32,000 nt of DNA, from the NCBI GenBank assembly GCA_016700375.1, contig CP065016.1, forward strand, positions 300,001 through 332,000, read 5' to 3'. The notes below the pieces were generated by a model. That model was not told the origin of the DNA. It did not search any database and worked only from the letters and a program-made list of their open reading frames with translations. How positions within the stretch are numbered: the stretch's first letter is position 1; each line of letters begins with the position of its first letter. This document shows, one piece after another, positions 2,720 through 30,238 of this stretch. The DNA comes from Candidatus Saccharimonadota bacterium. GTDB taxonomy: Bacteria > Patescibacteriota > Saccharimonadia > Saccharimonadales > UBA4665. Made by a program: the position numbers and the translations under genes.

Positions 2720-2843
2720 TATTTGTGATAAATATCGCTGCATTGTGGATAAACTGTGAGTTTTGGCCTTTACACACGTAGTCGAACCCGGTATGATACT
2801 AGTTGTATCTCCCTTACGGGAGTAAGCACCTTATATCTACATC

Positions 2844-2914
2844 GCTCCGATATTGTTCCCTGGTTATGGTGCTACAAGCACCGGCGGGAAGGGTATCGGA
2901 GCACTTTGTTTTAT
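2844..2914 (+). terminator. Long hairpin plus U-tract; terminator of the surface-protein gene or 3' end of a small RNA
   Basis: GCTCCGATA (2844-2852) pairs with TATCGGAGC (2894-2902). Inner helices are TTCCC/GGGAA and GGTGC/GCACC. The hairpin is followed by CTTTGTTTTAT. Confidence 0.5.
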
Positions 2915-3053
2915 AAGGGGTTTTATGTACAATACATGGTAACCGTTTGAGGGCGAATGAAAACTGATTTGCAAGAAGTCACTTATCACCCGTCCTTAAG
3001 TATTAAGCGCAAAAATTTAGCTTACATAGTAAAGGACTGGACGTACATTACAC

Positions 3054-3098
3054 AATATATTCCGGGGTAGTCCGTCAGCTGACGGACGGGTGGCTGTA
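3054..3098 (+). repeat. Partial duplicate of the tRNA 5' half, with the D-arm replaced by the palindrome TCCGTCAGCTGACGGA
   Basis: AATATATTCCGGGGTAG (3054-3070) is identical to 3342-3358. CGGGTGGCTGTA (3087-3098) is identical to 3372-3383. The 13 nt CTCAGCGGTAGAG of the real D-arm are replaced by the 16-nt perfect palindrome at 3071-3086. Confidence 0.85.
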
Positions 3099-3109
3099 TA
3101 ATAAACTTC

Positions 3110-3358
3110 ATGCTTGAAGTTTATGTGCTTTACAATGCAGTTGCTAATAAGATATATATTGGTCAAACTAATAATCTGAAAGTGAGACTCGCTTCACATA
3201 ATAATAAAAGGGGCAACCACTTTACAGCGAAGTTTGAGGGTGATTGGGAGCTGATTTATTCTGAATCAGTCGCCACTCGCTCTGAAGCACTTCAGCGCGA
3301 AAGACAATTAAAATCGTCAAGGGGACGAGCGTTCGTTAAAAAATATATTCCGGGGTAG
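3110..3358 (+). CDS. Small stand-alone GIY-YIG nuclease domain protein (82 aa)
   Basis: The sequence MLEVYVLYN..NKIYIGQTNNLKVRLASHN...RSEALQRERQLK carries the GIY (VYVLY) and YIG (IYIGQT) motifs plus the conserved Arg and Glu of the GIY-YIG fold. Its stop codon TAG (3356-3358) lies inside the first 10 nt of the tRNA. Confidence 0.85.
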   Translation: MLEVYVLYNAVANKIYIGQTNNLKVRLASHNNKRGNHFTAKFEGDWELIYSESVATRSEALQRERQLKSSRGRAFVKKYIPG

Positions 3359-3679
3359 CTCAGCGGTAGAGCGGGTGGCTGTAAGTCGCCTTGAAGAGTT
3401 ACTTCATAAATAAATGCAGCCTACTTGGGCAATCAAGTAGTGAACATCGGGTGAATTGACGGGAAGCCTACATCGAAAGACAAGGTAATCCGCAGCCAAG
3501 CCTTGCTTAGGTTAAAAGAGCAGGGAAGGTTCAGAGACTAGAGAGTGAGCCTAACAATAATCTCTCGTAAGCGCCCGACAACCGTTATGCGACGGTTGAT
3601 AAGATAGTCCGCCCTTGCACGAAAGTACAAGATAAGCATAACCACTAGGTCGCTGGTTCGAATCCAGTCCCCGGAGCCA
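3349..3679 (+). tRNA. Intron-containing tRNA, body most like tRNA-Asn(GUU); CCA encoded
   Basis: Exon parts by hand: TCCGGGG TA GCTC AGCGGTA GAGC G GGTGG CTGT | intron | TAA CCACT AGGTC GCTGG TTCGAAT CCAGT CCCCGGA G CCA. All four stems pair. U1-A72, G73 and the overall sequence closely resemble bacterial tRNA-Asn as I remember it from E. coli and B. subtilis. The exact splice junction, and hence the anticodon, is not fully resolved (see findings). Confidence 0.8.
3383..3638 (+). ncRNA. Group I intron (~256 nt, no ORF) in the anticodon loop
   Basis: The four classical conserved elements are present in order. P: GAATTGACGGGAAGCC (~3453-3468). Q: AATCCGCAGCCAAGCC (~3487-3502). R: GTTCAGAGACTAGA (~3529-3542). 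S: AAGATAGTCCG (~3601-3611). A P9-like hairpin with a GAAA tetraloop lies at 3614-3631. The candidate P1 pairs exon GGCTGT with GCAGCC (3415-3420), with a U.G pair at the splice site. Confidence 0.85.
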
Positions 3680-3715
3680 AGAAAAGACGAGTCGTTTGGG
3701 CTCGTTTTTTCTTGG
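3677..3715. terminator. Bidirectional-looking rho-independent terminator after the tRNA
   Basis: CCAAGAAAAGACGAG (3677-3691) pairs with CTCGTTTTTTCTTGG (3701-3715) with one G.U position. T-runs are present on both strands. Confidence 0.6.
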
Positions 3716-3719
3716 CTCA

Positions 3720-3923
3720 GAGATTGGTTTGAAACTGCGACCAGCGAGCAAAGCGAGTGAGGTCGCTGGTTCGGTGAAGCGAAGCCACGCGCAGTCCATC
3801 TACTGACGGACGAGCATGGTTGAGGGGAGGAGTACAAAGTCCGCCATCCAGTCCTCGGCCCCAAAAACCAATCCCAGACGAACCCACCAGAGGGAACCAT
3901 ACCATCCCGGGTGAAATCACATT
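3720..3923 (-). ncRNA. Unclassified conserved non-coding element, copy A (candidate structured RNA; strand tentative)
   Basis: It aligns along its full length with 10133-10340. The end blocks are near-identical (GAGAYTGGTTTGAAAC ... CCAAAAACCAATCCCAGAYGAACCCACCAGAG ... TACCATCCCGGGTGAAATCACATT) and the centre is diverged. The conserved blocks fall in different reading frames in the two copies. A long-range helix GATTGGTTT (3722-3730) / AAACCAATC (3865-3873) and an internal TCCATC-TACT-GACGGA hairpin are present. Confidence 0.45.
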
Positions 3924-4013: not shown

Positions 4014-5022
4014 GGCTAACTGAAAGATTTTAGGGTACTCTTTCACCGTTTTTCTGTCATGCTGATTGCATGAAAAAAGATGTTCTCATTGTCATAGCAT
4101 ACGGATTAATCATGTAGGGATGCAGTCTGGGCGTCCACGGTACCTTTGTCGGGATTGCCGCAAGAAGTTTCAAGATAAACGCAGACAGATACGTTCATCG
4201 GTTGCCTTCATGCATTGGGATAGCTATGTCTGGGGAAAGCAAACAGTCGAGCAGCTGGCCAAAGAGCTTCGTGTCAGTGTTCCGGCCATGCGAGCGAAGC
4301 TTGACGCCTACAACATCCCACAGACGCTCCCGTACCAGGAATTACTACCCACCTCAACTACACTCGCTATCGACGCCTACTTCCGTTCACGCGGTGACGG
4401 TACCCTTATCTTCCGCTCACCTGAGCTACGACGTAATCTTCTCTGGTACGATATTCGGTACGAAACTGTCGAGGAGTATCTACGAGGTATCCGTTTGATG
4501 CAAGAAGCGGGTTGGGTATTCACTGGCTTTGTGGTTGATGGTCGTAAAGGCGTTGTCAAAGCTCTTTCTAGCCTTGCTCCGGTGCAGTACTGCCAGTTCC
4601 ATCAGAAGAAGACTATTCGGAACTATCTGACAAAGCATCCCAAAACAGATGCCGCTAGAAAGCTCAAAGACATCGTCGATCTTTTGACGCTGACCGACGA
4701 AGCCTCGTTCCGGGCATGGCTTGGAGTGTGGCATCATACATGGGACACATTCCTGAAAGAGAAAACGATTCACCCCGATGGGAGTACCAGCTACACTCAC
4801 AGAAGACTTAGAGCAGCTTACCGCAGCCTCAAGACAAATCTACCGAATTTGTTTACCTGCCACACGGTCGATAACCCACCAAACACGACGAATACGTTAG
4901 ATGGTAGTATTAGTCATCTCAGAACAATGCACCGAGTCCATAGAGGCATAAAATTACGACGACGCCGTAAAGTAACAGATACGCTCCTTCGAGGAAAGTA
5001 CCCTAAAAAGTTTCAATGAGCC
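4014..5022 (+). mobile_element. Insertion sequence (~1.0 kb, single ORF; IS1/IS1595-like by architecture)
   Basis: The imperfect terminal IRs are GGCTAACTGAAAGATTTTAGGGTACT (4014-) and the reverse complement of AGTACCCTAAAAAGTTTCAATGAGCC (-5022), sharing a 12-nt perfect core TTTTAGGGTACT. A direct repeat TTAAATC(Y) lies immediately outside both ends (4006-4013 and 5023-5030). Confidence 0.8.
4066..5019 (+). CDS. Transposase with N-terminal InsA-like zinc ribbon and DDE-type core
   Basis: The N-terminal C-x2-C ... RYLCRDCRKKFQ resembles the IS1 InsA / IS1595 zinc finger. VVDGRKGVVKAL...YCQFHQKKTIRNYL resembles the D-x-G...C-x2-H block of Mutator/IS256-type cores. The start is TTG and the stop lies inside the right IR. 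Family assignment is tentative. Confidence 0.7.
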   Translation: MHEKRCSHCHSIRINHVGMQSGRPRYLCRDCRKKFQDKRRQIRSSVAFMHWDSYVWGKQTVEQLAKELRVSVPAMRAKLDAYNIPQTLPYQELLPTSTTLAIDAYFRSRGDGTLIFRSPELRRNLLWYDIRYETVEEYLRGIRLMQEAGWVFTGFVVDGRKGVVKALSSLAPVQYCQFHQKKTIRNYLTKHPKTDAARKLKDIVDLLTLTDEASFRAWLGVWHHTWDTFLKEKTIHPDGSTSYTHRRLRAAYRSLKTNLPNLFTCHTVDNPPNTTNTLDGSISHLRTMHRVHRGIKLRRRRKVTDTLLRGKYPKKFQ

Positions 5023-29994: not shown

Positions 29995-30165
29995 TTGCTG
30001 CTATCAGTCTAGCGGAAAACCTTTCTCTTGACCAGACAGCGAGATATTTATATAACCCAGATAGCGTCAGACATATGCTATGCTTGAGATGGTATAAATC
30101 TAACCAGGGTGGCGTGAAATTCGCCAATCGGACGTGATTGACCGTTTGGGGTCATAAGTCGTCGA

Positions 30166-30181
30166 TCCGTCAGCTGACGGA
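30166..30181. repeat. Perfect palindrome TCCGTCAGCTGACGGA (identical to 3071-3086)
   Basis: It is an exact 16-nt match to the palindrome that replaces the D-arm in the tRNA 5'-half duplicate. It lies in the divergent pyrF/EamA intergenic region. Confidence 0.8.
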
Positions 30182-30220
30182 ATGAGAACGTGCAATTCGT
30201 TCACCGGCCGTACAGTCGGA

Positions 30221-30238
30221 ATCCGTCAAACGACGGAT
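30221..30238. repeat. Related hairpin ATCCGTC-AAAC-GACGGAT
   Basis: It has the same TCCGTC/GACGGA stem with a different 4-nt loop, and lies 40 nt downstream of the previous copy. Confidence 0.75.

Follow-up and report, generated by a model that had tools for sequence, protein, structure and literature searches.

The stretch of DNA analyzed here, which we call the window, comprises 32,000 nt of a Candidatus Saccharimonadota bacterium (contig CP065016.1, positions 300,001 to 332,000, forward strand), and its subject is a small nuclease gene that runs into a tRNA-Asn gene. The gene (3110–3358, plus strand) encodes an 82-aa predicted GIY-YIG nuclease of the minimal Slx1/UPF0213 type and is bracketed by two copies of the 5′ half of the tRNA. 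Exact repeats of 17 nt (AATATATTCCGGGGTAG, at 3054–3070 and 3342–3358) and 12 nt (CGGGTGGCTGTA, at 3087–3098 and 3372–3383) are present in both copies. A perfect palindrome, TCCGTCAGCTGACGGA (3071–3086), with a 6-bp stem (7 bp if the adjacent G/C is counted) and a 4-nt loop, links the two repeats upstream; the downstream copy has a normal 13-nt D arm, CTCAGCGGTAGAG, in that place. Only 0.18 matches to the palindrome are expected in the whole window. In tRNA numbering, the upstream copy, hereafter the decoy, consists of arm a (TCCGGGGTAG, 3061–3070, plus strand, tRNA nt 1–10, identical to the resident tRNA), the hairpin TCCGTC-AGCT-GACGGA in place of nt 11–23, and arm b (CGGGTGGCTGT, 3087–3097, plus strand, nt 24–34), and the next base, A3098, also equals the first base of an intron in the resident tRNA. 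The last 10 nt of the gene are tRNA nt 1–10, and its stop codon TAG (3356–3358) is U8-A9-G10 of the tRNA. The original prediction, made from the letters of this stretch, had described the bracketing repeats, the exact exchange of the D arm for a palindrome and the stop codon inside the real tRNA, and all three were found.

The resident tRNA-Asn(GUU) gene is itself split. Exon 1 (nt 1–34, 3349–3382) and exon 2 with its encoded CCA (3639–3679) flank a 256-nt group I intron (3383–3638; Rfam RF00028, 103.8 bits) that has no open reading frame (ORF) and lies in the anticodon, between U35 and U36; all three are on the plus strand. Owing to the intron, ARAGORN calls no tRNA in the window in its default mode, and the gene is called in intron mode. 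We dropped the label Tyr(gta) that the program assigned, because the junction is ambiguous by 1 base and the exons (3349–3679) are identical to the intron-less tRNA-Asn(GTT) of locus L019 and of 57 metagenome loci. Neither the decoy nor the hairpin matched an Rfam family at gathering or E-value thresholds in the window and seven further loci.

The similarity between the two copies extends well beyond the tRNA. Local alignment of 2912–3098 with 3205–3383 gives a score of 112, compared with 30.6 ± 6.2 for shuffled sequences, and the homology runs ~150 nt further left of the 17-nt repeat, into a decayed copy of the 3′ part of the gene (2912–3070, plus strand, ~codons 32–82). This remnant carries a stop codon and a frameshift and ends in TATATTCCGGGGTAG, like the intact gene. 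In two frames, tblastn recovers the peptides FEGE(stop)KLICKKSLITR and YITQYIPG(stop), which correspond to residues 42–57 and 75–82 of the protein. The order in the window is a gene 3′ remnant, a hairpin-split tRNA fragment, the intact gene and the intact tRNA. Because the homology reaches into the gene remnant, the flanking repeats are the ends of a ~288-nt tandem unit, and the window is a degenerate two-unit tandem array with that period. This replaces the short target duplication upon insertion that had been proposed for the locus; the upstream copy instead ends a decayed earlier unit. Tandem arrays with periods of 288–352 nt are found in the window and at loci L013, L041, L053 and L058. 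In L013, the decoy and the ORF are present twice in tandem, and the periods in L058 and L041 are 342 and 352 nt. L041 also has four 52-nt decoy-plus-hairpin units ahead of tRNA-Val, and L053 has three 87-nt units.

We scanned metagenomes for the exact 5′ half of tRNA-Asn and obtained 80 loci. None of the 80 encodes a relative of the GIY-YIG gene, and none has a consensus-type hairpin upstream of the tRNA. In many of them smpB ends 120–250 nt 5′ of the tRNA, a gene order that we read as the ancestral synteny. Locus L225 is syntenic with the window on both sides, and there a leader hairpin is followed by 5 nt (gatat) and then by tRNA-Asn nt 1. The window has the homologous leader inverted repeat (GCTCCGATATTGTTCCC / GGGAAGGGTATCGGAGC, 2844–2902, plus strand) and, between it and tRNA nt 1, 444 extra nt (2905–3348), so that the repeat marks the left edge of the inserted block. 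The GIY-YIG cassette is an insertion, and L225 represents its empty site; the suggestion that the ORF had been inserted here is borne out by this locus and by the 80 gene-free loci with the same tRNA 5′ half. Upstream of the leader repeat lies a promoter-like site, TTTACA-17-TATGAT (2769–2797, plus strand, 10/12 matches), with a homologous TTTACAC...TATGAT upstream of tRNA-Asn in L225. This is probably the native tRNA-Asn promoter, now 5′ of the entire cassette, and since it lies upstream of the insert, the cassette probably sits within the pre-tRNA leader.

Close homologs of the protein are numerous, mostly 79–87 aa long, and occur in Saccharibacteria and other Patescibacteria, with C-termini of the form ...(Y/H/F)-I-P-x. 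A profile search returned 2,253 clusters (50% identity) at E ≤ 1e-10, and at least 521 of 600 candidate stretches encoded relatives. We fetched 79 genomic loci; the groups used in the hairpin counts were 34 Patescibacteria-type loci, 41 Bacteroidota/Ignavibacteriota-type loci and a proteobacterial outgroup of five. A hairpin was counted when it lay no more than 90 nt before the start codon in the Patescibacteria type or no more than 90 nt past the stop codon in the Bacteroidota type.

In 29 of the 34 Patescibacteria-type loci, a hairpin with the consensus TCCGCC-AGCT-GGCGGA is found 29–71 nt 5′ of the start codon, within a copy of the 5′ part of the same tRNA that follows the gene. The hairpin replaces 3–13 nt of the tRNA copy in every case. 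The segment usually replaced is D-loop nt 14–16; nt 11–23 are replaced in the window and in L011, its closest relative, and other decoys have the hairpin in place of nt 9–11, nt 26–28 or, in tRNA-Lys copies, ~nt 22–34. The decoy acceptor strand equals that of the resident tRNA in all 14 loci checked, compared with 6.05 of 8 matching positions when other genomes are used. At 22 loci, the gene's stop codon falls inside an adjacent tRNA called by ARAGORN (Asn 19, Lys 2, His 1). In 15 of the tRNA-Asn genes and both tRNA-Lys genes, nt 1 lies 9 nt ahead of the last base of the stop codon, which is then U8-A9-G10, and this register accounts for the variable last residue of the protein. At four further tRNA-Asn loci the stop codon is the D-loop UAG instead.

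The Bacteroidota/Ignavibacteriota loci have the converse arrangement. An intact tRNA with its terminator ends 14–290 nt 5′ of the ORF in 28 of 41 loci, the partners being initiator-type Met, another CAU tRNA, Val and Asn (at L064 the partner is tRNA-Arg, and no hairpin is present). In 28 of the 41, a 5′-truncated copy of that tRNA directly follows the stop codon; the hairpin replaces, for example, nt 38–48, and after it come the T arm, the 3′ acceptor strand and the terminator. Culturable carriers include Maribellus sediminis (L055) and Ancylomarina euxinus (L074). The Patescibacteria and Bacteroidota layouts are circular permutations of one unit, and this unit is distributed over many species-level genomes of the Patescibacteria, the Bacteroidota and the Ignavibacteriota. 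Neither the hairpin nor a tRNA neighbor is present at the five proteobacterial loci. Across the loci, 105 hairpins were counted no more than 700 nt from an ORF (~124 kb) and nine in 296 kb of outer flanks, a ~28-fold difference in density. We note that a second palindrome type, related to CCTGCCTGCCGGCAGGCAGG, is inserted in tRNA-like fragments at L041 2690–2720, L052 ~2205–2225 and L055 ~2845–2875, which suggests that more than one hairpin species fills the hairpin role near the cassettes. The original prediction had offered, as its second choice, a mobile unit that itself includes the tRNA-like hairpin module. With other copies of the ORF associated with a tRNA copy and hairpin at 29/34 and 28/41 loci, this alternative is strongly supported.

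These counts bear on another account of the locus, a passive by-product in which an ordinary small gene has been inherited vertically beside a tRNA, the decoys are debris of tRNA duplication and the palindrome is an unrelated genome-wide repeat of the repetitive extragenic palindrome (REP) kind or a terminator. Solo hairpins do occur away from ORFs (at 30166 in the window and in L024, L052 and L056), the ORF lineages follow the tRNA partner, and no phage or plasmid copies were found, all of which fit such an account. It does not, however, explain why the hairpin is tied to the gene family across phyla and is so much denser near the ORFs, why it is absent from the 80 ORF-less tRNA-Asn loci of relatives, why it always lies within a tRNA copy and is never merely adjacent to one, or why the decoys match the resident tRNA with no drift. 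We regard a passive origin as scarcely probable.

The hairpin is conserved as a structure. We collected 16-mers anchored only on the outer TCCG...CGGA, leaving the inner pairs unconstrained, and found 11 and 13 double changes at pairs 5–12 and 6–11, respectively, with one single change each; none of 500 shuffles reached these values. The stem variants include TCCGTC/GACGGA, TCCGCT/AGCGGA, TTCGCT/AGCGAA and TCCGGC/GCCGGA. Loops are 3–4 nt and often non-palindromic, which argues against a plain symmetric duplex binding site. The commonest form is a 16-bp palindrome that is perfect through its center (AGCT in 42/112), and G-T pairs in the stems show no excess over other mismatches. Taken together, the last two observations hint that the constraint acts on DNA, on both strands as a cruciform or hairpin, and not on an RNA helix. 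The cassette hairpin has no variable sites among 10 strain contigs, a sample biased by the choice of contigs for an identical protein.

The same observations weigh on a function at the RNA level, in which the leader-encoded nuclease would act on tRNA or pre-tRNA (in processing, in quality control or as a toxin) and the hairpin-bearing tRNA mimic would be an RNA that binds or regulates it; the arrangement would be akin to type III toxin–antitoxin pairs, whose RNA repeats neutralize an endoribonuclease. Several features of the locus fit this idea. The ORF lies in a tRNA transcription unit, and an RNase P cut at tRNA nt 1 would strip the last three codons and the stop codon. The decoys are sense-strand tRNA mimics, and the three to four tandem decoy-plus-hairpin units before the gene in L041 and L053 recall ToxIN; upstream arrays of this kind were seen at only a few loci, and most examined loci have a single hairpin beside the ORF. 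A prokaryotic Slx1-like domain is also known as a fusion to a TrmH-type tRNA methyltransferase, from which the authors of a survey suggested a role in RNA metabolism (PMC1564403). Against this, the stems are nearly always perfectly Watson–Crick paired without a G-U excess, which is unusual for a conserved RNA helix, and the full palindromic symmetry is meaningful in DNA only. The hairpin is 5′ of the ORF in one phylum and 3′ in another, and the patchy distribution (0/80 close relatives), the pseudogenes and the arrays look selfish rather than like housekeeping. To our knowledge, the characterized GIY-YIG enzymes are DNases, which also counts against an RNA substrate. On balance we consider an RNA-level function unlikely.

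One occurrence of the hairpin in the window has a bearing on both of these alternatives. A sub-threshold match to the FMN riboswitch (45.9 bits, curated threshold 66.2) lies at 30096–30237, upstream of a gene for an EamA/DMT transporter. Its variable hairpin (30166–30181) equals the cassette hairpin at 16 of 16 positions, and its expression-platform hairpin (30222–30237) has the same stem. In six relatives of this riboswitch both hairpins are present with different stems. The match could stem from conversion by the cassette hairpin, from a factor that binds both or from coincidence. The presence of the cassette stem in two riboswitch hairpins is in line with an RNA-level role.

By sequence and predicted structure, the protein is a minimal, domain-only GIY-YIG protein of the Slx1/UPF0213 type. 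The GIY-YIG domain (Pfam PF01541, E=6e-18) spans residues 4–73, and Y5, Y16, G18, R26, H30, N31 and E64 are invariant among 33 homologs. In a profile search of the PDB, the matches were 1ywl (E=1.6e-7), 1zg2 (3.1e-6), SLX1 (2.6e-3) and I-TevI (3.2e-3). The AlphaFold2 (AF2) model (pLDDT 93.8) has the GIY-YIG fold, and Foldseek places 1zg2 and Slx1 (TM-score on the query, TMq, 0.65–0.70 for Slx1) above UvrC and I-TevI. The whole 82-aa protein is catalytic domain, with no DNA-binding extension. In a survey of the superfamily, the prokaryotic Slx1-like proteins are described as a minimal, possibly ancestral GIY-YIG form, with no reported linkage to tRNA genes, and Slx1 itself is a structure-specific nuclease that keeps up rDNA repeat number (PMC1564403).

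This placement matters for the identity first proposed for the gene, a free-standing or formerly intron-borne homing endonuclease. In its classical form, the enzyme would cut intron-less tRNA-Asn near the intron site, its target would have been duplicated, and the ORF-less intron would protect the resident allele by collaborative homing. The splice junction of the window's intron is CTGT/A (the slash marks the junction here and below), and its sequence shows an internal guide, GCAGCC (3417–3422), that can pair with GGCUGU at the end of the 5′ exon, with the usual U-G pair at the splice site. In favor of the homing reading, homology between the decoy and the tRNA stops at CTGT(A), which is the intron insertion point, and the L011 decoy ends in CTGTAAG, the window's exon–intron junction CTGT/AAG. 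The tRNA-Asn anticodon site is moreover a hot spot for group I introns: they occupy the same CTGT/ site in ~22 of the 80 ORF-less loci (Rfam confirms 19 of 20 tested), with HNH ORFs near the intron 5′ ends in two cases (L225 2757–3312 and L028 3275–3608). One 2014 review of bacterial group I introns does not mention tRNA-Asn. The ORF shows a presence/absence polymorphism, and collaborative and intron-less homing are established pathways (PMC3984707).

Homing of this kind is nevertheless highly improbable for this gene. At least 20 relatives have the GIY-YIG gene directly ahead of an intron-less tRNA-Asn, where cutting would destroy the enzyme's own host gene, and the ~22 introns lie in loci without the ORF. 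Because ORF and intron occur apart, the intron is independent of the gene and is not needed as a shield of the resident tRNA, contrary to what had been proposed. Nor is there a sign that the ORF was formerly intron-borne, since none of the introns at the tRNA-Asn site was seen to hold a GIY-YIG ORF and the intron ORFs there are HNH. Most decoys end elsewhere than CTGT(A), at tRNA nt 25–39, and the hairpin is usually in the D loop. The protein falls in the Slx1/UPF0213 branch and lacks a DNA-binding domain of the Seg or I-TevI type, and the conserved hairpin and the Bacteroidota layout would be left unexplained. We note one further peculiarity of the window's intron, which ends in ...GATAAGCA before TAACC (3636–3639) and so has A as its last base, where a G is normally invariant. 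The 19 complete introns related to it at this tRNA-Asn site all end in GTG/TAACC, whereas the window and the nine strain contigs that reach the junction (97.8–99.7% identical) end in GCA/TAACC. Because the terminal G is A, the splicing competence of the intron, and hence the function of the window's tRNA-Asn gene, is doubtful.

The reading that we favor, and that we hold somewhat likelier to be right than wrong, is that the window carries one of a large family of selfish cassettes resident in tRNA transcription units, with the hairpin-split tRNA mimic as a cis element. One unit consists of the minimal GIY-YIG gene, the conserved 16-nt hairpin and the two flanking arms copied from the neighboring tRNA. 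In the window, two such units follow one another in the space from the tRNA-Asn promoter to tRNA nt 1, and the older is without the 5′ portion of its gene. Transcription of the cassette probably takes place within the pre-tRNA leader, and the gene borrows its stop codon from U8-A9-G10 of the tRNA. Considered as a cycle (ORF, arm a, hairpin, arm b), the unit could recombine with the resident tRNA through one arm, either by a single crossover of the Campbell type, with the unit excised or in tandem, or by unequal exchange. A crossover in arm a would give decoy, ORF and intact tRNA, as in Patescibacteria, and one in arm b would give intact tRNA, ORF and decoy, as in Bacteroidota. Only products that keep one intact tRNA would survive, and other crossovers would be lost; this would explain why an intact and a hairpin-bearing copy are constantly paired, why there are arrays and why the stop codon is borrowed. 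The nuclease, which has no DNA-binding domain and is similar to structure-specific enzymes, most likely recognizes the hairpin, as a cruciform or in single-stranded DNA, and would make the break or nick that starts these exchanges, driving recombination and tandem amplification. The anatomy, the conserved module, the covariation of the hairpin, the insertion polymorphism, the arrays and the fold are observed; the nuclease activity, the hairpin as substrate, the route of recombination and the co-transcription are inferred.

Several points weigh against this proposal. The nuclease activity of the 82-aa domain is a prediction, and the domain has no DNA-binding module with which to find a site. 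Because the position of the hairpin in the tRNA varies by lineage, the hairpin cannot be the mark of a single, constant point of cleavage. Neither a circular nor an excised form of the unit was seen, and no family member was found in phage records, IMG/VR contigs or plasmids, where the matches are to the generic N-terminal GIY-YIG motif only. The ORF lineages track the tRNA partner, with Met-type partners interleaved, a pattern that fits long vertical co-inheritance as well as target-specific mobility. Arms of 10–33 nt are inefficient for ordinary homologous recombination. The model leaves the sequence conservation of the hairpin and the identity of the decoy arms unexplained, and the latter needs recent formation or ongoing gene conversion. 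The cassette 16-mer in the window's FMN riboswitch hairpin has no ORF nearby.

A bolder step would be to see here a new class of mobile element, a ~300-nt unit without recombinase or transposase that uses a hairpin-split tRNA mimic as its attachment site, encodes a minimal, structure-specific GIY-YIG nuclease as its sole product and both enters tRNA genes and amplifies there by nuclease-triggered recombination between arm and tRNA, always leaving one working tRNA. We offer this tentatively and think it rather less than likely to hold. We found no published description of the module, including by hairpin sequence, in a literature that we covered incompletely, and novelty is not proven by this.

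The nearest precedent for the cassette is SegB of phages T4 and T6, a free-standing enzyme encoded in tRNA gene clusters; it is a protein of ~220 aa with a C-terminal DNA-binding region and belongs to the homing endonuclease branch. This GIY-YIG enzyme recognizes tRNA-gene sequence and homes in crosses (PMC2330249), and T6 SegB drives tandem amplification of a 718-bp tRNA-Tyr-plus-segB unit whose junction forms at microhomology shared by the 3′ end of segB and the 5′ end of the tRNA (PMC13096335). The window cassette resembles these systems in the tie between a GIY-YIG gene and tRNA genes, in the presence/absence polymorphism and in the tandem units of tRNA and nuclease gene. It differs in that SegB is phage-borne and far longer than 82 aa (a 28-aa C-terminal truncation leaves a working gene) and has no conserved hairpin, hairpin-split decoy or resting-state overlap of ORF and tRNA, whereas the window cassette is on a bacterial chromosome. 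The UPF0213 or prokaryotic Slx1-like proteins (1ywl, EF2693; 1zg2, BH0048) are the best sequence and fold matches, consist of the domain only and share the catalytic residues; their identity to the window protein is only ~24–25%, and their role in DNA repair is a prediction (PMC1564403). Literature searches found no reported link of UPF0213 proteins to tRNA genes or hairpins. Eukaryotic Slx1–Slx4 shares the fold of the nuclease domain (Foldseek TMq 0.60–0.70), cuts branched and stem-loop DNA and holds the copy number of rDNA arrays, a parallel to the hairpin and the tandem tRNA/decoy arrays described above. Slx1, however, has a RING domain, depends on Slx4 and is a host repair factor rather than a cassette in its target locus.

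Collaborative and intron-less homing (PMC3984707) likewise involve a free-standing nuclease gene adjoining a gene with an ORF-less group I intron at a recurrent site, but here the intron and the ORF occur independently across relatives, most resident alleles have no intron and the intron ORFs are HNH. Integrative elements that target tRNA genes carry tRNA-identical sequence and leave an intact tRNA and a partial duplicate as direct repeats. The window unit is only ~290–350 nt, encodes no tyrosine or serine recombinase but solely the 82-aa GIY-YIG ORF, and has a duplicate that is split by a hairpin and, in Patescibacteria, corresponds to the 5′ rather than the 3′ part of the tRNA. The IS200/IS605 (TnpA) and REP/RAYT systems also tie a small conserved hairpin to a small nuclease gene, with solo hairpins elsewhere; they use HUH/Y1 transposases and have hairpins at the element ends, in contrast to the GIY-YIG protein and single hairpin within a tRNA mimic seen here.

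If the cassette reading is true, a bare nuclease domain of 82 aa and a 16-nt hairpin would be enough to make up a selfish gene, with tRNA genes, the most conserved sequences in biology, serving as portable homology, and the host could not silence or delete the cassette without losing an essential tRNA. The cassette would be a chromosomal parallel to the SegB-driven amplification of tRNA genes in phages. The long-uncharacterized bacterial Slx1-like/UPF0213 family would gain a first function and a testable substrate, the TCCGCC-AGCT-GGCGGA hairpin or palindrome, and the protein could possibly serve as a small structure-guided nuclease for engineering. Such cassettes may also explain why the fetched contigs often end just past these genes and why partial tRNA "genes" are present there.

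Some features of the locus stand apart from this argument. The start codon lies at the top of a perfect 10-bp hairpin (ATAAACTTCA TGCT TGAAGTTTAT, 3101–3124, plus strand; DNA fold z = −5.4). The original prediction was right that the ORF starts in a hairpin, but the likeness it saw to a hairpin at the 5′ end of the intron comes down to a shared 5-bp stem; the latter is ordinary conserved intron sequence, and we rejected the kinship as coincidence. Start-codon sequestration was also discarded as a family feature, with a median z of ~0 across 30 loci and a hairpin that is lineage-specific. A TATAAT hexamer (3097–3102, plus strand) 7 nt 5′ of the ATG could, on its sequence and spacing, possibly be the −10 box of a leaderless transcript. 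Of 26 relatives, 11 have a −10-like hexamer 6–9 nt ahead of the start codon (background 16%), an enrichment in a subset only.

Downstream, a terminator-like inverted repeat followed by a T run (3674–3718, plus strand; 18-nt arms, 94% complementary) overlaps the tRNA 3′ end and is conserved in L225. Beyond it lies a pseudo-copy of the tRNA 3′ half (AGGTCGCTGGTTCG ... ATCCAGTCCTCGGCCCCA, 3760–3863, plus strand) with a 72-nt insert in the T loop. This insert holds a relative of the cassette hairpin (3795–3810), which in four strain contigs is the perfect TCCGTC-TACT-GACGGA. L225 has the same split 3′ half (3474–3511) with a different 51-nt insert and without hairpin or gene, and whether the split half is part of the cassette is therefore uncertain; its possible origins include an old remnant of a cassette and the scar of an integration. 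About 200 nt past it, outside the unit and absent from the units of relatives, is a gene for an IS256-family transposase, zinc-binding variant (4066–5019; NCBIfam NF048019, E=9.6e-78). On the other side, an 818-aa repeat-rich surface protein (263–2719; weak PATR repeat match, C-terminal LANTG motif, membrane anchor) is encoded between smpB and tRNA-Asn. In many relatives smpB adjoins the tRNA, which suggests that the surface-protein gene is a second insertion at this locus. Matches to the Rfam DUF3800-IX small RNA (48–49 bits) occur within a few kb of tRNA-Asn at L159 4877–4940 and L217 6166–6229.

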